Shown one piece after another: positions 1 to 12,005 of a DNA stretch of 64,000 bases (the first letter of the stretch is position 1; each line of letters opens with the position of its first letter). Position numbers and translations under genes: made by a program. Under the pieces are notes generated by a model that ran no database searches, was not told where the DNA came from, and worked only from the letters and a program-made list of their open reading frames with translations. Source of the stretch: Clostridia bacterium (GTDB taxonomy: Bacteria; Bacillota; Clostridia; UBA1212); NCBI GenBank assembly GCA_017461545.1, contig JAFTXP010000014.1, positions 121,006 through 185,005 of the forward strand. The letters run 5' to 3'.

Positions 1-1639
1 TAATAAATTCTGAAATTATATCTATAGAATTTGAAATATCCTCAGTACCGAAAGCACAAGCTAAATCTATTAAAACTTTTTTCAATGCATTATCACTATT
101 AGATTTCTCCAATAATAATTTCCATACAGGAATTATACAAAGTGCGACTGCGTGTCCATGACTGATATTATAATCTGTTGTCAATTTATAACTCATAGAA
201 TGAGCAGCAGTTGTTCTTGTAATATTAATTGCTCTTCCGCTATAATTTGAAGCAGTAATAATATCTTCATAGCACTCTTCTTTTCCGTTTAAATAGTCTT
301 TATAATTATTTAAAATTAATCTTATGCATTTCTTAGAATATTCTTTACTTTCTTCTGTTGCTCCTTTAGACCAAAACGATTCTACTGCCTGACATAACGA
401 ATCCAGTATAGTTGATTTTTTTTGATAATCAGGTAATGTCTTTAATGCATCAGAGCATAATATTGCATGATCAGGCAATGCACATCCATAATCTATCGAT
501 ATTTTTTTACCTTTATGATACATAACAGCAATTTGGGTTGATTCGCTGCCGCTGCCTGCCGTTGTAGGGACAGCAATGTGTCTCATATTATTATATTTAA
601 ATTTCTTTTCTAAAAAATCATATTCATTTTCTAATGAAGAAAATAGCTTTATACATTTTGCAACATCAATTGCACTTCCTCCACCAATAGAAATAATTAC
701 TTTATAATCACGTTTTTTAAAAAGTTCTACGCCTTTTTTTATCTCTTCATATTTTGGATTTGAAGTAAAATCAGTGAATAAGCTATATTCATAATCCACA
801 AATTCTTTTTTAACAGAATCGGTTAATCTATTACTGCAAACAACAAAAATGTTATCATTAAACCCTATTAATTCCTTTATTGATTTAAAATAATCACCGG
901 AAACTGTAATTGGCTGTTCTCTGTAATCAAAGAACTTAATTTCATTTAAAACACGATTATAATCTATTTCATTATCTATCTCATCAATATAATCATTTTT
1001 ATAAGACATACCTTGTATATTTAATTTATGTGATATTTCGTTTAAAGCGTTTTCAGCATAAACATTAACATATCCTGCCGAAACAAATTCAGCAACTTTA
1101 TTCTTCCATAAAGTCAAATCTTTTTTACTTAACTTATATAGCGGCTGGAAAGCATAACAATCATTATCAAATATATTTATTGAAACTTCTAACAATTTAT
1201 TATCCTTAAATCTACATTTGAAATCCTTTTCCGGCAATGATTTTGTTTCATCATAAAGACAAACTGATTCATTTTTATTTTCTAATAATTTTATAACTAA
1301 ATTTTTATTAAAAACCAAATCACCATGGAGTAATAACACATCATCATCTAAAAATATATTGGCATTATTCATTGATACAATATAATTAGTTTTTTTATAA
1401 TCATCATTTGCAACAAAATCAAAATGAAGATTTCTGAATTTATTTGCAATGTCGTATAATTGCTCTTTAAACGGTCCTGTGGTAATTATAAAATCTTTAA
1501 TTCCGCACTCACTTAAAATTCTTATTTGTCTTTCAAATATTGTTTCACCATTATATAACTTAACCATACACTTTGGATTATTTTCGGTCAATCCTGCCAT
1601 TCTGCTGCCTAATCCTGAGTTAAATATTAATGCTTTCAT
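1..1639 (-). CDS. Bifunctional LicC-like nucleotidyltransferase (phosphonate cytidylyltransferase-type) fused to iron-containing alcohol dehydrogenase (phosphonoacetaldehyde reductase-like). Partial: the C-terminus lies beyond the window start.
   Basis: Hand translation of the minus strand from ATG at 1639 (RBS AAGGA upstream) gives MKALIFNSGLGSRMAGLTENNPKCMVKL..., a GxGxR nucleotidyltransferase N-terminal domain. It is followed by the Fe-ADH glycine motif ISIGGGSAIDVAKCIKLF and a later HGHAVAL. The frame stays open to position 1. The ORF track does not list it because it runs off the edge. Confidence 0.6.
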   Translation of the reverse strand, partial: MKALIFNSGLGSRMAGLTENNPKCMVKLYNGETIFERQIRILSECGIKDFIITTGPFKEQLYDIANKFRNLHFDFVANDDYKKTNYIVSMNNANIFLDDDVLLLHGDLVFNKNLVIKLLENKNESVCLYDETKSLPEKDFKCRFKDNKLLEVSINIFDNDCYAFQPLYKLSKKDLTLWKNKVAEFVSAGYVNVYAENALNEISHKLNIQGMSYKNDYIDEIDNEIDYNRVLNEIKFFDYREQPITVSGDYFKSIKELIGFNDNIFVVCSNRLTDSVKKEFVDYEYSLFTDFTSNPKYEEIKKGVELFKKRDYKVIISIGGGSAIDVAKCIKLFSSLENEYDFLEKKFKYNNMRHIAVPTTAGSGSESTQIAVMYHKGKKISIDYGCALPDHAILCSDALKTLPDYQKKSTILDSLCQAVESFWSKGATEESKEYSKKCIRLILNNYKDYLNGKEECYEDIITASNYSGRAINITRTTAAHSMSYKLTTDYNISHGHAVALCIIPVWKLLLEKSNSDNALKKVLIDLACAFGTEDISNSIDIISEFI

Positions 1640-2762
1640 TTTTATTCCTTAACTTTTCTTGAAATTCTTTTTTATTAAACGCCGGAGTTGTTGTAGGTCT
1701 TCCTAAGTCCTGTCTTGAAATATTATTTGTATTAATTATCATTGCAATTTTACTATTATTTTTTAATAGTTTAATATTACTTTTCAGTTCTTCTTCGGTA
1801 CATGCAATTAATACTTCTTCAAATCCAAATGCTTTCAAGATTGAATATAGATCAATTTTATCGGAGATTGTCGGCTGTCCTCCGACAGATTCATGACATC
1901 CATTATTGATAAGTATATATTTAAAATTATTTTTAACATTTTGCATTGCTACTGCCAGTCCACCTAAGTGCATTAAGAAAGAACCATCTCCATCTATGCA
2001 AAATATATTTTTATTACTAAACAGACTTATTCCTGCTGCTAAAGATGCTGTATGTCCCATAGAACCAACTGTCAAAAAATCATTAGCGTGATTCTTATCT
2101 TTCTTTTCTCTTATTTCGAAAATTTCCCTTGATGTCTTACCGGTTGTTGAAACTACAAAATCATTATCAGATATATTATTTATAATTATTTCCAGTGATT
2201 TTTCTCTGGTTAAATCATTAATACTATTGTTTTTTATTTGGTTTTCATATTTTGAAAAAGTATCTTTTTTTACAATTACAGCAATAGGTTTTTCATTTTT
2301 TTTAATATAATTGTGACAATAGTTGATTTGATTTTTATATTCATCATTTAAAACAATGTATTTAATATTTAATGTATCTAATAAAGGTAATGTTAATTCT
2401 CCTTGTTTGATATGTTGCGGCTCATCTTTTACACCGGGTTCTCCTCTATAACCAATAACTAACAACATAGGAATTTTATATACGTTCTCATCTGCCAAAG
2501 ATAAAAGAGGATTAATAATATTACCAAGCCCGGAATTCTGCATATATACCAGTCCATAATCAGATGTTGAAATATTGTACCCACACGCTAACGCTAAAGC
2601 ATTACCTTCATTTGCTGCTATTATATGATTCTTACTCGGTGATTTATCTGTTATACACATACAAAGTTCTTTCAATAACGAATCAGGCACCCCCGTAAAA
2701 AAGGTAAATTCATTATCTAATAATGTGTTATAAAAATCTAATGGATTAATCACTACTATCAC
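1620..2762 (-). CDS. ppd: Phosphonopyruvate decarboxylase (TPP-dependent)
   Basis: 380 aa. N-terminal FFTGVPDSLLKEL and TPP-binding GDGSFLMHLGG...NNG motifs. Typical Ppd length. Overlaps and follows the PEP mutase gene. Confidence 0.75.
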   Translation of the reverse strand: MIVVINPLDFYNTLLDNEFTFFTGVPDSLLKELCMCITDKSPSKNHIIAANEGNALALACGYNISTSDYGLVYMQNSGLGNIINPLLSLADENVYKIPMLLVIGYRGEPGVKDEPQHIKQGELTLPLLDTLNIKYIVLNDEYKNQINYCHNYIKKNEKPIAVIVKKDTFSKYENQIKNNSINDLTREKSLEIIINNISDNDFVVSTTGKTSREIFEIREKKDKNHANDFLTVGSMGHTASLAAGISLFSNKNIFCIDGDGSFLMHLGGLAVAMQNVKNNFKYILINNGCHESVGGQPTISDKIDLYSILKAFGFEEVLIACTEEELKSNIKLLKNNSKIAMIINTNNISRQDLGRPTTTPAFNKKEFQEKLRNKNESINI

Positions 2763-3639
2763 CTATTACTTTTAATATTTCTTCCATGGATGCACAATAG
2801 TTTTCGCTGACATCTTTTGAACATTCATCCTTTAATATTTGTTCGGCAACCATTGTCATTACTTTATAAGAACTTCTCAGCAATTGATTTGCATAAATTA
2901 CTATGTTAGCTCCTCGATCAAATAATTCGTGTTCTTTAAATTGATTATATGCAGTCGGCACTACAACTAACGGGATGTTAACATATTTTATTTTAAATCG
3001 GGTAATAAAATCTAAAATTTCCTGTCCATCATTTTTATAACTATGAATCATTATTCCATCAGCTCCCGCTTTAACATAAGCATCGGCTCTGTCCATCGCA
3101 TCTTCTACATCTTTACCGGCAATAAAACTTTCTACTCTGGCAATAATCATAAAATCATCTGTTTGAAGATGAGATTTACCTTTTTTAATTTTATCAGCAA
3201 ATATTTCTTTATCTTCTAATATTTGAACAGCTTTATTACCCAATAAAGAGTTTTGCTTCAAGCCTTTTTTATCCTCAATAATAACAGCCGATACTCCGAT
3301 TCTCTCTAAAGTTTTAACATTATAAATAAAATGTTCTACATGTCCGCCTGTATCACCATCTACTATAATTGGTTTTGATGTGACTTCCATTATTTCCTCA
3401 ATAGTCTTAACTCTGCTTGAAAAATCTATCACTTCATTGTCAGGTTTTCCTTTTAGAGTAGAATCACACAATGAACTTAACCACATAGCGTCATATTCTT
3501 TATTATCAACTTTTGTATTTTCAACAATTAATCCTGTCAATCCATTTGATGCTTCCAGTACTCTCAAAATTTTTTTCTTATATAAAATTTGTTTTAATCT
3601 TTTTCTTCTTACTTCCGGCATATTGTTATTCACGCACAT
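2746..3639 (-). CDS. pepM: Phosphoenolpyruvate mutase (PEP phosphomutase)
   Basis: Carries the ICL/PEPM-family motif VIIEDKKGLKQNSL (EDKxxxxxNS) and DGDTGG. About 297 aa from ATG (MCVNNN...). The track ORF 2746..3654 begins at an upstream TTG. Adjacent to ppd. Confidence 0.75.
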   Translation of the reverse strand: MCVNNNMPEVRRKRLKQILYKKKILRVLEASNGLTGLIVENTKVDNKEYDAMWLSSLCDSTLKGKPDNEVIDFSSRVKTIEEIMEVTSKPIIVDGDTGGHVEHFIYNVKTLERIGVSAVIIEDKKGLKQNSLLGNKAVQILEDKEIFADKIKKGKSHLQTDDFMIIARVESFIAGKDVEDAMDRADAYVKAGADGIMIHSYKNDGQEILDFITRFKIKYVNIPLVVVPTAYNQFKEHELFDRGANIVIYANQLLRSSYKVMTMVAEQILKDECSKDVSENYCASMEEILKVIGDSSD

Positions 3640-4285
3640 CAGTCCCTCTTGCAATTAATCTGTAAATTAACTTACCATTAAGCTTCAAAAATAACCAAAT
3701 ATTTTTAAATATACTAACATAATCCATATAGTCTTTTGTCGCTTCTTTTGTCTTTAGAAAATATTCTTCTTTATAGAAATATTTACTTAGTAAAACATCT
3801 AAGTTTTTTATGTTATATTTGTAATATTGCTCTTCCATTGTTACCGAATCAGATAATTCTACTATTTTACTTACAAATGACATACAATTATAAGCTTTAT
3901 AAATTTTAAACCCATGAAATATTGGCATTGTAATCATTGAAAAGAAATTAAATATATATTCATCATCATTTGATATATTATTTATAAACTTTTCAATTTC
4001 ATTTTTATTTTCTCTTGATACCGGTATTTTAAATATTTTTAATTTTACATATTTGTTTTTTCCAAAAGCATAACAATCCAACGTTTCAATCATAAAACCA
4101 CAATCAAAAGGTGAATAATGTTTTCTTCTTGAAAAAGTAATAAATTTATCAAGCTTATCATCTAAACATACAGCAATATGAGTATAGTCATATTTCGCGA
4201 ACAATCTTGCAAACTTACCCAAACCTGTTAATGCTTTTACTAATACAACATATATACAATCATTTTGACTCTCGTTCTTCTGCAT
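3626..4285 (-). CDS. Hypothetical protein (219 aa) embedded in the phosphonate cluster
   Basis: ORF overlaps both neighbours in an operon-like arrangement. No motif I can name. Lys/Asn/Tyr-rich and predicted soluble. Confidence 0.4.
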   Translation of the reverse strand: MQKNESQNDCIYVVLVKALTGLGKFARLFAKYDYTHIAVCLDDKLDKFITFSRRKHYSPFDCGFMIETLDCYAFGKNKYVKLKIFKIPVSRENKNEIEKFINNISNDDEYIFNFFSMITMPIFHGFKIYKAYNCMSFVSKIVELSDSVTMEEQYYKYNIKNLDVLLSKYFYKEEYFLKTKEATKDYMDYVSIFKNIWLFLKLNGKLIYRLIARGTDVRE

Positions 4286-4964
4286 CTTTTTTACTTAGCC
4301 TTTTAAATAATTGAATTTGTAATCTAATCATTTCATAATACATTGGTATTCCGCCAACAATAAATACAATATCTGCAAATTTTAATTTAACGTCTAAAAC
4401 TTCTACTATCACATTTGGTCCGAATATCATACTTCCTATACATAAAACAATAAAAAATAAATGTGTTTCAATCGGTCCGAGTCTCGGAAATAAAAATTCT
4501 TTTAAGTATAAAATATAATTCATTGCCGTAAAAATTATAAGTGCATAAACCGGTACTAAAAAAATTGATATTTGAAAACTAACAAATCCTGCAAAAGAAA
4601 GAGCGATTATTAAATATGTAATATGTAATATATCACTCAACAAATCAAAATATCCACCTGCTATTGATGACATATTTCTAGTTCTTGCTACATAACCATC
4701 AAGATCATCACAAATTAAATGACATAAAAGACCTGATATAGTTCCTATCAAAAATAATGGATTGAGCTTAGCTAAAAACGCACAGACAATTCCAATCAAT
4801 CCACCTATTGCTCCAATTAAGGTTATTTGATTAGGAGTCATATTTTTAGGAATATGAACACCTACCCGTTTATATAAAAATTGTTGGAAACCGGTTTCTA
4901 ATTTACTGGGTATTATTTTTTTCACTTTATCTTCTTTTGCCACATTATTTTCACTCATGATCAT
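4260..4964 (-). CDS. CDP-alcohol phosphatidyltransferase family protein
   Basis: 234 aa, multi-TM. Family signature CDDLDGYVARTRNMSSIAGGYFDLLSDILH (D-G-x2-A-R...G-x3-D-x3-D). Confidence 0.7.
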   Translation of the reverse strand: MIMSENNVAKEDKVKKIIPSKLETGFQQFLYKRVGVHIPKNMTPNQITLIGAIGGLIGIVCAFLAKLNPLFLIGTISGLLCHLICDDLDGYVARTRNMSSIAGGYFDLLSDILHITYLIIALSFAGFVSFQISIFLVPVYALIIFTAMNYILYLKEFLFPRLGPIETHLFFIVLCIGSMIFGPNVIVEVLDVKLKFADIVFIVGGIPMYYEMIRLQIQLFKRLSKKDAEERESK

Positions 4965-6330
4965 TTCTCCTTTTTGATTTAAACATATTAACTATAAATG
5001 ATTTAATATAATCACCGTAATCTATAAAATCATAAACTCCTTCTTTTTTCCCTTTTAAAAATAATTTTATCAACAGCATATAATAATTTAAATAATATTT
5101 CTTTACACTCATTTTAGACGGTTTAGCTACAACATGAAGATAATCCCAATGGGATGGATTATCAGTTATAATTCTGTCCCTATACATGTCATAAGTTTCT
5201 ATCCCAAATTCAGGTGTAAAAATAGAAATCGCAACGTGTTTCAAATTATGGTTTTTTATCCATTTATATAACAATTTAAAATCTTTTGATTCGAAATCTA
5301 AATCAACAATAAACATTCCCATAATGTTTATTCCGTACTTATTGCAAATGTCGATACTTTTAATATTGTTATTTACATTAGACTTCTTATTATATTTTGT
5401 TAAATTATTATCATTTATCGCTTCTAATCCAACTAAAACATAATACAGACCTATGTCTTTTAGCTCTCTCATTGTTTCTTCATTCTGAACTATAAAATCA
5501 GATCTTCCGTAACATATATATTTCTTATTAACTTTTTTCTGTTTAATCAATGAAATAAAATTTTTTAATCTTTCTTCATTAAATAGAAAATCATCATCAA
5601 CTATATAAATATTATCTGTCTTTATTTTTGATATTTCATTTACTACATCTTCTATATCTCTGTAAACATATTTTCCGCAATTCATTCTGTTCCTGTGACA
5701 GAACTTACAATGATATGGGCAACAATATGCCGTTCTTACCCATGCTGAATGTTCTAGTTCCAAATAACGATAATTATTAGGATGTTCATAAAAATAAGTT
5801 CTGTCCGGCAATGGTAATTCGTTTATATCAAATGGTTTAGATTCATTTTTTATCCATACATTATCTCTTTTATAACAAATACCATCAACATTCTCTAATT
5901 TTATTTTCTTTTTGTTTATACTGTAATCAACCATATCCAATATTTTAAAAATATCAAATGTAGTCAAAATATAATCAACACAATCTTTGTACATTCTTTC
6001 ATAACTTAGTTGTGCGTGTAATCCCCCGATAATTGTTAAAATATTACTATTAAACTTTTTAGCTTCTTCGCAATATTCAAGCATAAAGTTTTCTTGTCTT
6101 GTTCTACCACATACATATACAACATCCGGATTAATTTCTTTTATTTTAGTTGGTACATCAATTTTTTCAATTTGACCGTCATATATATGTATTTCATAAT
6201 CTCGTTCTTTTAAAACACTTGAAATGTATTCTAATTCTAAACATTCGTTCTCTATAACTCCTACAAAGTTATACTTTGTTCTGGATATTTCAGGATGAAT
6301 TAAGAGAAATTTTAATTTTTTATTGTTCAT
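4951..6330 (-). CDS. B12-binding domain radical SAM protein (class B, Fom3-like candidate methyltransferase)
   Basis: N-terminal Rossmann/B12-like region (KLKFLLIHPEIS...). Radical SAM cysteine triad CPYHCKFC (CxxxCxxC). Likely start is ATG (MNNKK) with GAGG 9 nt upstream. The track start 6345 is an upstream ATG with no RBS. Confidence 0.7.
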   Translation of the reverse strand: MNNKKLKFLLIHPEISRTKYNFVGVIENECLELEYISSVLKERDYEIHIYDGQIEKIDVPTKIKEINPDVVYVCGRTRQENFMLEYCEEAKKFNSNILTIIGGLHAQLSYERMYKDCVDYILTTFDIFKILDMVDYSINKKKIKLENVDGICYKRDNVWIKNESKPFDINELPLPDRTYFYEHPNNYRYLELEHSAWVRTAYCCPYHCKFCHRNRMNCGKYVYRDIEDVVNEISKIKTDNIYIVDDDFLFNEERLKNFISLIKQKKVNKKYICYGRSDFIVQNEETMRELKDIGLYYVLVGLEAINDNNLTKYNKKSNVNNNIKSIDICNKYGINIMGMFIVDLDFESKDFKLLYKWIKNHNLKHVAISIFTPEFGIETYDMYRDRIITDNPSHWDYLHVVAKPSKMSVKKYYLNYYMLLIKLFLKGKKEGVYDFIDYGDYIKSFIVNMFKSKRRNDHE

Positions 6331-6440
6331 CTTCATCCGCCTCATTAATTACAATAATTCATAATTTCTTTCTACAATTTTTTGTTAATTCTGCTCGATC
6401 CTTTGTTTAAATACGCTATTATAAAACTTATATCAAAAAG

Positions 6441-7091
6441 TTAAGATTTTTTTACACTTACTATACCGCTATATTTACTAATCACTTTTGTTTCTAATTC
6501 ATTTTTATCCATATTTTCCTCTAACAATTTCTTTATTGCATTAAATAGTTTTTCATTTGCCTTTTCCATATCCAACTTTGATACATCTATTGGTTTACCA
6601 AATACTATTTTTAAATTCTTGGAAAACATCTTATAACTTCCTGTTATTGAATAAGGAACAATAATGCTATTGGTTTTTTTCGCCATTGATACTGCACCGT
6701 ATTTAAAGGGTAGCAATAGTTCTTCAGTATAATTCCTTTTTGCTTCAGGAGATAAATTAATTAAATTACCTTCTTTCAGCTTTTCTGTTGCAGCATCAGA
6801 GGCGGCTTTATTAGTTGCACTGTTTAAATCAACAGGTATTGTTCCAACCGCTCTAAAAAAGAATCCAAATATTCCATCATGCAAATTTTTTTTGGCTAAA
6901 GTAAATACTATCCGCTTTGTACAAACATCTACTAATATCGGATCTAATGCGTGTTTATGATTCCCTGCAATTATTGCAGCACCATTTTTAGGTATGTATT
7001 GCTCATTTATAATCTTCGGTCTAAATACAAATTTGAATAACGGTAAAAATATCACTCTAAATACTTTATACAAATAATACTTCTTTGTCAT
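6441..7091 (-). CDS. 1-acyl-sn-glycerol-3-phosphate acyltransferase family (PlsC-like)
   Basis: 216 aa. HxxxxD acyltransferase motif (AGNHKHALDP). RBS AAAGGAG and an extended -10 promoter lie upstream. AT-rich like the downstream cluster. Confidence 0.65.
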   Translation of the reverse strand: MTKKYYLYKVFRVIFLPLFKFVFRPKIINEQYIPKNGAAIIAGNHKHALDPILVDVCTKRIVFTLAKKNLHDGIFGFFFRAVGTIPVDLNSATNKAASDAATEKLKEGNLINLSPEAKRNYTEELLLPFKYGAVSMAKKTNSIIVPYSITGSYKMFSKNLKIVFGKPIDVSKLDMEKANEKLFNAIKKLLEENMDKNELETKVISKYSGIVSVKKS

Positions 7092-10894: not shown

Positions 10895-12005
10895 TTATTT
10901 ATTATTAAATTCGTTAGCAAGGAAAGCGTTGATAAATCCGTCCAACGCTCCGTCCATAACCTTCTGTACATTCGTATCTTCAAAAGATGTTCTGTGGTCT
11001 TTTACAAGAGTATACGGGCAAAATACGTATGAACGAATCTGACTGCCCCAGGCAATCTCTTTCTGTACACCTTTTATGTCCGAAATTTTCTCAACCTGCT
11101 CTTGCTGTTTTATTTCAAACAGCTTTGACTTAAGCATTTTCATAGCAGTTTCAGTATTCTGGAGCTGCGAACGCTCAGTCTGACAAGAAACCATAATGCC
11201 TGTAGGCTTGTGAACGATACGCGTAGCCGAGTCAGTTTTGTTTATGTGCTGACCGCCGGCACCGCTTGAACGGTAGTGGCTCACTTCTATATCCTCTGCC
11301 GGTATATCGATCTCTATGGTATCATCTATCTCGGGCATTACCTCAACTGACGTAAACGATGTGTGACGTCTGCCGGCCGAGTCAAACGGCGAAATTCTGA
11401 CGAGACGGTGAACACCGTGCTCACTCTTCAGAAAACCGTAAGCATTTATTCCGTTTACCTGAATAACAGCACTTTTTATACCTGCATCATCGCCGTCAAG
11501 AAAGTCAATAAGCTTTACTTCGTAACCGTGCGCATCGCCCCAACGTGTGTACATACGGAGAAGCATCTGAGTCCAGTCCTGTGCCTCCGTTCCGCCGGCC
11601 CCGGAGTGAAGTGTCAGAATCGCATTATTTGCGTCATATTCGCCGGTAAGAAGCGTTTCAAGACGAAGTGCATTAAACTCACTTTTAAATTTATCCATGA
11701 GTTCTGCAACAACATCAACATATGCAAGATCCTGCTCTTCGTTTCCGATTTCAATCGTGACCTGTATCTCTTCAAAAACAGACTCAAGTTCCGTAAATTT
11801 GCCCAATTTTTCTTTTAAAACCTTAAGCTGTTTGAGCACAGCCTGTGAATTTGCTGCATCGTTCCAGAAATCAGGTTCCGATGCTTTGTTTTCAAGTTCT
11901 TCTATCTTGTTTGACATCCCGGTCGTGTCAAAGTGAATCCCTCAAATCATATAAATTTTTCTGTAAACCCTCAAGCTCCAAGCTGAACTGGTCTAACTCA
12001 AACAT
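10895..12005 (-). CDS. prfB: Peptide chain release factor 2, with programmed +1 frameshift
   Basis: The track ORF 10895..11917 carries the GGQ motif SSGAGGQHINKTDSA and SPFDSAGRRHTSF. The upstream frame from ATG at 12005 reads MFELDQFSLELEGLQKNLYDLRDSL then CTT TGA C, the canonical RF2 frameshift site at about 11927-11933. That joins the main frame in +1 (DTTGMSNKIEE...). Confidence 0.9.
11927..11933 (-). other. prfB: Programmed +1 ribosomal frameshift site CTT TGA C in prfB
   Basis: Read directly: ...AGG GAT TCA CTT TGA CAC GAC C. An SD-like AGGGAT sits a few nt upstream, as in classic RF2 autoregulation. Confidence 0.8.

Follow-up and report, generated by a model that had tools for sequence, protein, structure and literature searches.

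A nucleotidyltransferase–iron-containing alcohol dehydrogenase fusion in a Clostridia phosphonate cassette: a candidate bifunctional enzyme of the 2-hydroxyethylphosphonate branch

The closest described system to the gene considered here is Tde1415 of T. denticola (Protein Data Bank (PDB) entries 6PD1/6PD2), a characterised fusion of the phosphonate nucleotidyltransferase (NT) PntC to a 2-aminoethylphosphonate (AEP) transaminase (PMC6697681). Other near relatives are Fom1 of Streptomyces wedmorensis, whose cytidylyltransferase (CyTase) domain uses 2-hydroxyethylphosphonate (HEP) and is fused to phosphoenolpyruvate (PEP) phosphomutase (PepM), the stand-alone NT LicC of Streptococcus pneumoniae (1JYK), the stand-alone reductases PhpC, FomC and DhpG (EC 1.1.1.309) and the sulfoacetaldehyde reductase BkTauF of Bifidobacterium kashiwanohense (6JKO/6JKP; PMC6616044). 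Here we describe a gene at the edge of a 64,000-nucleotide (nt) stretch of Clostridia bacterium DNA (contig JAFTXP010000014.1, positions 121,006 to 185,005; the whole stretch is hereafter called the window), in which an N-terminal LicC-like NT domain is joined to a C-terminal iron-containing alcohol dehydrogenase (Fe-ADH) domain, directly downstream of genes for PepM and phosphonopyruvate decarboxylase (Ppd). We put the probability at about 0.72 that its product is a bifunctional enzyme of the HEP branch, which would take phosphonoacetaldehyde (PnAA) to HEP and on to the cytidine monophosphate (CMP) conjugate CMP-HEP, feeding a Kennedy-type CDP-alcohol phosphotransferase encoded in the same cassette. 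The evidence for this reading is computational throughout.

Read in this way, the fusion is the HEP-branch counterpart of Tde1415. Both proteins carry an N-terminal LicC-like NT of family PF12804 and a C-terminal enzyme that processes PnAA, in the same domain order and with the same logic of making the head group and then activating it with CMP. They differ in the partner, which in Tde1415 is a class V aminotransferase dependent on pyridoxal phosphate and forming AEP, whereas the window protein has an Fe-ADH domain and no aminotransferase domain; furthermore, Glu104 of Tde1415 is His105 here, and Tde1415 has been characterised biochemically and structurally, the window protein by sequence. With Fom1 the window protein shares the reaction proposed here, HEP and cytidine triphosphate (CTP) to CMP-HEP, and a fusion within a PepM/Ppd/Fe-ADH pathway, and as in fosfomycin biosynthesis (Fom3) a B12-radical S-adenosylmethionine (SAM) enzyme is present in the window cassette. 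In Fom1, however, the CyTase domain belongs to PF01467 and is fused to PepM, whereas here a PF12804 domain is fused to the reductase and PepM stands alone, and the product is probably a lipid where that of the Fom1 pathway is an antibiotic. Membership of the Fom1-type family was thus rejected, since the NT is of PF12804 and has an ADH as its partner, where Fom1 combines PF01467 with PepM, and the NT may work like the Fom1 CyTase domain while not being a member of its family. A preliminary description of this DNA had held that phosphonate NTs are usually free or fused to PepM; this is incomplete, as Tde1415 is an NT–transaminase fusion. The NT–Fe-ADH fusion is absent from the main text of an inventory of Ppm fusions (PMC6697681) and of an inventory of branch points (PMC8942020), a 2026 study of PhpC makes no mention of fusions (PMC13576164), and a targeted literature search found no paper describing it, an absence that is not proof of its being undescribed. 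The fusion itself is little surprise, and the surrounding cassette is the more interesting lead.

The gene lies on the minus strand and runs from an ATG at 1639–1637 to base 1 of the window as 546 codons without a stop. A ribosome-binding site, AAGGA, is located 6 nt 5' of the ATG, and the start of the gene overlaps the 3' end of the preceding Ppd open reading frame (ORF) by 20 nt. The peptides MKALIFNSGLGSRMAG...KCMV, ISIGGGSAIDVAK and HGHAVAL, on which the preliminary description had based its claim of an in-frame fusion, all fall in one frame of this ORF, and searches against Pfam placed both domains on its translation, with NTP_transf_3 at residues 4–122 (E 4e-9) and a further match to NTP_transferase (E 4e-5), followed by Fe-ADH at residues 254–394 (E 2.6e-30) and ADH_Fe_C at residues 409–528 (E 9e-17). 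An open run of 546 codons matching two protein families is far beyond chance. The gene had been noted as cut by the window edge, and it was completed through a full-length counterpart, P0001 (MBQ8164882.1, 594 amino acids (aa)), which shows 100% identity and coverage to the window ORF and is carried on a 150-kb contig (L001) with the same gene order as the window; as the full protein has 594 aa and the window holds 546, the last 48 aa lie beyond the edge. Neither a stop nor a frameshift separates the two domains, here or in 32 aligned homologues (fusion proteins 33–69% identical to the window protein, used for all residue-conservation statements below). The AlphaFold2 model of the fusion is continuous and confident (predicted local distance difference test (pLDDT) 94.2, predicted template modelling score (pTM) 0.91), with two domains and no disordered linker. 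The two-domain NT and Fe-ADH protein is therefore the product of a single genuine gene, and two consecutive predicted steps are co-translated.

The architecture recurs widely. A homologue search of NCBI, ENA, JGI and Logan detected at least 120 clusters (90% identity) of ~580–630 aa with both domains, with carriers that include Lachnospiraceae, Faecalimonas (e.g. WP_461815683.1) and Clostridiaceae. An exhaustive HMMER scan of 1.84 billion representatives of 50%-identity clusters returned ~60 clusters matching end to end, down to ~34% identity, and below these many stand-alone ADHs of 340–380 aa which are 40–47% identical to the ADH domain. The catalytic residues of the NT and ADH halves are invariant across the 32 fusions, and the junction between the domains is short and partly conserved (FDYREQxI). 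A fusion that recurs in ~60 divergent clusters with a conserved junction points to functional coupling of its two halves. The window comes from a metagenome-assembled genome, and SAR11 and one further locus (L010) encode the ADH and the NT separately, so we considered whether the fusion could be an assembly or sequencing artefact joining two neighbouring genes. This has a negligible probability and is effectively refuted: the identical protein occurs on several contigs from separate assemblies (ENA, Logan), more than 120 homologous clusters from the four sources share the architecture, the junction motif is conserved, and the predicted fold is continuous. Source annotations of the fusion are generic (“iron-containing alcohol dehydrogenase” and, for one JGI homologue, “alcohol dehydrogenase class IV/choline kinase”).

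Larger fusions of the same domains were also found (Table 1), namely NT-ADH-LicD, NT-ADH-LicD-LicD (1228 aa) and NT-ADH-TagF-MptE (1381 aa), together with ADH-TagF-MptE, ADH-LicD-MptE, NT-CTP_transf_like-ADH (751 aa) and NT-rhomboid (612 aa). LicD and TagF-type transferases are users of CDP donors, hence their presence on the same polypeptide suggests that the NT and ADH domains yield a CMP-activated phosphonate.

The NT half carries the sequence signature GxG(T/S)Rx4-8PK, with its catalytic Arg and Lys, which was described for LicC and PntC by Rice et al. (PMC6697681). In the window protein it reads G9-L-G11-S-R13-(8 residues)-P-K23, with G9, G11, R13 and K23 invariant in 32/32 fusions, as are H105, D107, E196, E220 and D222. 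A profile built from 22 NT domains and searched against the PDB matched LicC best among solved structures (1jyk, E 2.8e-24, 89 bits) and Tde1415 second (6pd1, E 1.3e-21, 80 bits), against E 3.4e-13 and 53 bits for the best sugar-1-phosphate NT, and a single-sequence search gave the same ranking. This agrees with the preliminary assignment of the domain to the LicC-like enzymes and not to the sugar-1-phosphate NTs. The C-terminal ExD motif (E220, D222) aligns with EID of LicC and Tde1415, and D107 aligns with D106 of Tde1415; by analogy with the LicC structure, D107, E220 and D222 are putative Mg ligands.

Substrate preference may be reflected in one position of this domain. The amine of AEP is reported to lie in contact with Glu104 and Glu196 in PntC of T. 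denticola, positions held by Asp105 and Asp192 in LicC (PMC6697681). The position of PntC Glu104 and LicC Asp105 is an invariant histidine (His105) in the fusions, while Glu196 is kept and invariant, and in the separate NT genes of other PepM/Ppd/Fe-ADH clusters the same position is His (L010) or Tyr (SAR11). The loss of one acidic residue would fit a neutral hydroxyl substrate such as HEP better than a cationic amine, and given His105 the NT substrate probably differs from those of both PntC and LicC. LicC has the signature motif too and makes a CDP-product for LicD, which may be compared with the NT-ADH-LicD relatives above, but its substrate is a phosphate ester with a quaternary amine and it is a stand-alone monomer. 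For the window protein, CTP-dependent cytidylyl transfer by the NT domain is predicted.

The best solved relative of the ADH domain is 6jko, both by sequence (E 6e-30, 26% identity) and by Foldseek (E 3.8e-25, template modelling score 0.84). This structure was deposited as a methanol dehydrogenase and is really the sulfoacetaldehyde reductase BkTauF, whose substrate, sulfoacetaldehyde, is the sulfonate analogue of PnAA (PMC6616044). According to Piazza et al. (PMC13576164), the metal ligands are Asp191, His195, His260 and His274 in PhpC and Asp192, Gln196, His261 and His275 in BkTauF, with Gln a proven Zn ligand in the latter, and the predicted HEP-binding residues of PhpC are Lys157, Thr256, Tyr264 and Arg349, of which Tyr264 is strictly conserved in PhpC and replaced by Phe in sulfoacetaldehyde reductases. 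The GGGS NAD-binding motif, D413, H480 and H494 are invariant in the fusions, and metal-site position 417 is Gln in 29/32, including the window protein, and His in 3/32. The counterparts of PhpC K157, T256, Y264 and R349, mapped by spacing and by alignment to BkTauF, are K379, T476, Y484 and R572; they too are invariant, and their spacings to the metal ligands (34, 4, 4, 14) are as in PhpC. Stand-alone relatives that align at these positions carry the metal-ligand and predicted HEP-site residues in 65–66 of 66 cases, with Gln (36) or His (30) at position 417.

Y484, located four residues after a metal-ligand His, is therefore in the PhpC state and not in the Phe state of the sulfoacetaldehyde reductases. 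PhpC, FomC and DhpG share with the ADH domain the PF00465 fold, the equivalents of K157, T256, Y264 and R349, three of four metal ligands and a PepM-Ppd neighbourhood; they differ in being stand-alone proteins of ~360–390 aa, and the second metal ligand here is Gln, not His. BkTauF shares the Asp/Gln/His/His Zn site and the motif LxQAxExFWSKG, and differs in its sulfonate substrate, in having Phe for Tyr484, in standing alone and in belonging to taurine metabolism. Taken together, the residues suggest that the ADH is part of a coherent clade whose substrate-binding signature is that of PhpC and whose metal site follows either PhpC or TauF, and by analogy with sulfoacetaldehyde reductase it is probably Zn-dependent with an Asp/Gln/His/His site. 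The preliminary description had likened the ADH to PnAA reductases, a likeness that holds by residues (K379, T476, Y484, R572) and by the PepM-Ppd context, although the domain stays below the cutoff of the family model for these enzymes, TIGR03405 (see below).

The gene context ties the two halves to different parts of a pathway. The fusion is directly downstream of PepM-Ppd in 7/7 contexts, five of which (window/L001, L016, L019, L020, L021) are the same lipid-type cassette in differing chromosomal neighbourhoods and two of which are of a glycopolymer type, with LicD, TagF-type, ABC-transporter and glycosyltransferase genes in L015 and Wzy, Wzx, Wzz and glycosyltransferase genes in L018. In L021, Ppd (1625–2740) is split into two ORFs of 141 aa (TPP_enzyme_N) and 152 aa (TPP_enzyme_C), which may reflect a frameshift, decay to a pseudogene or an error in sequencing. 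A further set of loci, here called salvage loci (L004, L005, L006/L007 and L009, five loci in four arrangements, as L006 and L007 are near-identical), jointly lack PepM, Ppd and the ADH domain, and keep the acyltransferase, AMP-ligase, radical-SAM, CDP-alcohol transferase and 219-aa-protein genes (e.g. L006 3770–10735). Their NT is a stand-alone protein of 244 aa, 79–84% identical to the window NT domain, which ends at the junction motif, and the lost genes are replaced by a major facilitator superfamily (MFS) transporter of the organophosphate:phosphate antiporter family (PgtP, UhpC, GlpT; 1pw4 E 1e-20). The ADH thus co-varies with the module that makes the phosphonate and the NT with the module that uses it, as expected if the ADH makes the substrate of the NT. 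The PepM-Ppd clusters of SAR11 and L010 encode the ADH and the NT separately, side by side in SAR11, and separate genes in some genomes with a fusion in others is a classic pattern. A full-length tblastn match in SAR11 (30% identity) was at first a candidate fusion and was rejected, as its ORFs are two adjacent genes, ADH then NT.

In the pathway we propose, PepM would convert PEP to phosphonopyruvate and Ppd would convert phosphonopyruvate to PnAA, which the C-terminal Fe-ADH domain would reduce with NAD(P)H to HEP; the N-terminal LicC/PntC-type domain would then join HEP to CTP, giving CMP-HEP and pyrophosphate. Pfam and NCBIfam annotation revealed no aminotransferase in the window cassette, therefore PnAA has no encoded fate other than reduction. 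The CDP-alcohol phosphotransferase would most likely pass the head group of CMP-HEP to a lipid alcohol such as diacylglycerol, which suggests an HEP phosphonolipid as the product, and the radical-SAM enzyme, the PlsC acyltransferase and the 219-aa His/Cys protein would tailor it. In relatives, LicD or TagF-type transferases would instead place the head group of CMP-HEP on wall glycopolymers. The ORF, its domains, the conserved catalytic residues, the gene context and the co-variation of modules are observed, whereas the scheme predicts its substrates, which reaction comes first, the choice of nucleotide and the lipid product. The preliminary description had envisaged the same two steps on one polypeptide, a reading which the analysis supports, with channelling between them, which is hypothetical. 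A reversed order, in which the NT would make CMP-PnAA and the ADH would then reduce it to CMP-HEP, is decidedly improbable, even though nothing computed fixes the order, the fusion and its compact predicted two-domain structure suit a hand-over either way, and fosfomycin biosynthesis has a later enzyme, Fom3, that is reported to act on a CMP conjugate (PMC8158854). The precedents activate a finished head group, HEP by the Fom1 CyTase and AEP by Tde1415 (PMC6697681), the ADH has retained the Lys/Arg clamp and the Thr and Tyr which in PhpC are predicted to hold a free phosphonate dianion, and stand-alone ADHs with the same residues are widespread. Moreover, the salvage-locus NT has no ADH, so its substrate must be one that does not have to be reduced afterwards.

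Several observations weigh against an HEP-branch enzyme, beginning with the dehydrogenase half. The PhpC residues were placed through BkTauF and by spacing, with no PhpC sequence in the alignment, and the tyrosine at the fourth position after the metal-ligand His was dropped as a PhpC-only marker as Thermotoga TM0920 has Tyr too. The TIGR03405 model (Phn_Fe-ADH/PsrA) scored the domain at 115.7 bits against a cutoff of 423.7, which does not place it in that family, and the domain scored equally against ErcA (116.5 bits, cutoff 550) and lactaldehyde reductase. TIGR03405, named after the Burkholderia PsrA/PhpC homologue (PMC13576164), was dropped as a membership test because it is uninformative here, with 0/10 relatives reaching the cutoff (111–159 bits), including the SAR11 ADH inside a PepM-Ppd cluster; PhpC-type enzymes are highly divergent, with a mean identity of 39% (PMC13576164), and the model is too narrow for the clade of the fused ADH. 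PhpC homologues also serve in HEP degradation (PMC13576164) and ErcA is the nominal top NCBIfam match, hence the ADH might be catabolic, turning HEP into PnAA, or a non-catalytic regulatory protein like ErcA. Such a role is very improbable, as annotation of the window and L001 shows no phnX, phnA, phnY or phnW nearby, the gene sits in a PepM-Ppd operon, the NAD- and metal-binding residues are all invariant, the ErcA score is far under its cutoff, and loss of the domain coincides exactly with that of PepM and Ppd.

The remaining adverse points concern the NT and what lies downstream of it. HEP cytidylyltransferase activity has been characterised in the CyTase domain of Fom1, which is of the other Pfam family, PF01467, and such a domain is fused to PepM in a Fom1-like manner in both glycopolymer-type loci (L015 7522–8856, L018 6567–7877) besides the PF12804-ADH fusion, so with two NT families present either of them might be the one that activates HEP there. 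The closest characterised relatives of the salvage transporter carry glycerol-3-phosphate and phosphoglycerate, and as these are phosphate esters the NT substrate could be one as well. The likeness of the CDP-alcohol phosphotransferase to its best solved relatives, CEPT1 8gyw (E 6.8e-5) and CHPT1 9uet (E 1.3e-4), is weak, at E about 1e-4. CEPT1 and CHPT1 are Kennedy-pathway enzymes, in which diacylglycerol receives its head group from a CDP donor.

On these grounds the NT might instead activate phosphoethanolamine, phosphocholine, AEP or glycerol-3-phosphate, with the fusion serving co-regulation, and the rank of LicC as best solved match, the pairing of the salvage NT with a transporter related to phosphate-ester carriers, the Fom1-like PF01467 domain as a possible actual HEP activator in L015 and L018 and the choline kinase label on the JGI homologue would all suit this view. 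We nevertheless consider a substrate other than HEP unlikely. No aminotransferase, choline kinase or further source of head groups is encoded in the window cassette and the fused domain is its sole NT, the fusion follows PepM-Ppd in every context examined, an invariant His stands where PntC and LicC have an acidic residue in contact with the amine, and the fusion recurs with a conserved junction across ~60 divergent clusters. HEP is thus the most probable substrate of the NT domain.

The fusion gene and the other genes of the window cassette lie on one strand (Table 1).

Table 1. Domains of the fusion protein, genes of the surrounding cassette and larger fusions in relatives. Positions are those of the window unless a locus is named.
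Feature	Position	Strand	Basis or remark
NT domain, LicC/PntC-type (aa 1–243)	911..1639	-	PF12804, PF00483, GxGSRx8PK motif, profile matches
Fe-ADH domain, group III alcohol dehydrogenase (aa 244–546 of 594)	1..910	-	PF00465, PF25137
Ppd, phosphonopyruvate decarboxylase	1620..2762	-	TIGR03297 422.8 bits (cutoff 312.5); TPP_enzyme_N and TPP_enzyme_C
PepM, PEP phosphomutase, stand-alone 302 aa, no fused NT	2746..3654	-	TIGR02320 360.5 bits (cutoff 319.55)
219-aa conserved protein MBQ8164885.1	3626..4285	-	candidate permuted papain-like / NlpC-P60 His-Cys enzyme
CDP-alcohol phosphotransferase, predicted head-group transferase	4260..4964	-	PF01066; complete Dx2DGx2ARx8Gx3Dx3D motif
B12-binding radical SAM enzyme, class B, methyltransferase-like	4951..6345	-	PF02310, PF04055
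PlsC-type acyltransferase, first cassette gene	6441..7091	-	PF01553 E 9e-23
Larger-fusion relatives (P0107, P0120, P0135, P0186, P0190, P0192, P0203, P0168, P0187)	P0120: L015 10001–12676		

The cassette ORFs overlap or nearly abut, and PepM, Ppd and the fusion are probably translationally coupled. Promoter-like sites in the cassette numbered 55 against 54.7 expected from shuffled sequence, and no minus-strand terminator-like site was found inside it, a result which fits a single operon and proves nothing. In PepM, the diagnostic EDKxxxxxNS motif (PMC6697681) is present as IEDKKGLKQNS. The radical SAM enzyme scored under every cutoff in NCBIfam, with HpnR best (143.6 bits, cutoff 650), followed by BchE (113) and the PhpK family (83.6), and its match to AprD4 is also far under cutoff. 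Its gene stays with the lipid module when PepM-Ppd is lost and is absent from glycan-type clusters; by pathway analogy with Fom3 it could C-methylate CMP-HEP, or could act on the lipid.

The 219-aa protein is found in every lipid-type cassette, matches no Pfam or NCBIfam family and has 343 homologues, of which every source-named one is labelled hypothetical. Its invariant residues are H36, H56 and N133-C134 (NCMSF). In the AlphaFold2 model (pLDDT 82.9) the top seven Foldseek matches are TseH, the C92 peptidase 3kw0 and YiiX (E 0.03–0.3), so in fold it resembles permuted papain-like / NlpC-P60 proteins weakly but consistently, and the protein may be a lipid acyltransferase or hydrolase.

The PlsC-type gene keeps its place as first gene in L003, L016, L019 and L020, as well as in the salvage loci. 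Among lipid-type cassettes with their upstream end on the contig, a long-chain acyl-CoA-ligase-like AMP-binding gene (~570–590 aa) sits between the acyltransferase and radical-SAM genes in L003, L016, L019, L020 and all salvage loci; the window cassette is without it, and ~95 nt (6345–6441) separate the two genes there.

HEP is increasingly regarded as an abundant environmental phosphonate (PMC13576164), while the way in which it is attached to cell-surface molecules is poorly defined. If the proposed function is true, the HEP branch gains the make-then-activate logic that Tde1415 set for AEP, and PF12804 with PF00465 next to PepM-Ppd becomes a sequence marker for pathways that use CMP-HEP, by which hundreds of database entries named “iron-containing alcohol dehydrogenase” could be re-annotated. 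To our knowledge, the known phosphonolipids carry AEP-type head groups. From the cassette one would expect an HEP phosphonolipid, a salvage twin equipped with a transporter and mega-fusions that decorate glycopolymers, making HEP lipids and HEP-decorated wall polymers candidates in gut Clostridia, with possible effects on membrane phosphate economy, on phage and immune recognition and on gut phosphonate cycling. More tentatively, and with rather less confidence than we place in the enzyme itself, we suggest that this conserved and mobile gut-Clostridia cassette of 7–8 genes, with the fusion as its entry enzyme, might make a new class of HEP phosphonolipid by a Kennedy-like route from CMP-HEP and diacylglycerol, perhaps C-methylated by the B12-radical-SAM enzyme in the manner of Fom3 or O-acylated, that its salvage twin might scavenge gut phosphonate through the antiporter, that LicD/TagF relatives might decorate wall glycopolymers with HEP, and that CMP-HEP might be a general surface building block of Bacillota.

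Elsewhere in the window, prfB (release factor 2; 10895–12005, minus strand) shows the classic programmed +1 frameshift, which is known biology. From the ATG at 12005–12003, the in-frame TGA is codon 26 within CTT TGA C (frameshift site 11927–11933), with a Shine–Dalgarno-like GAGGGA just 5' of the frameshift, and the match of the main ORF to the family model begins only at position 21.

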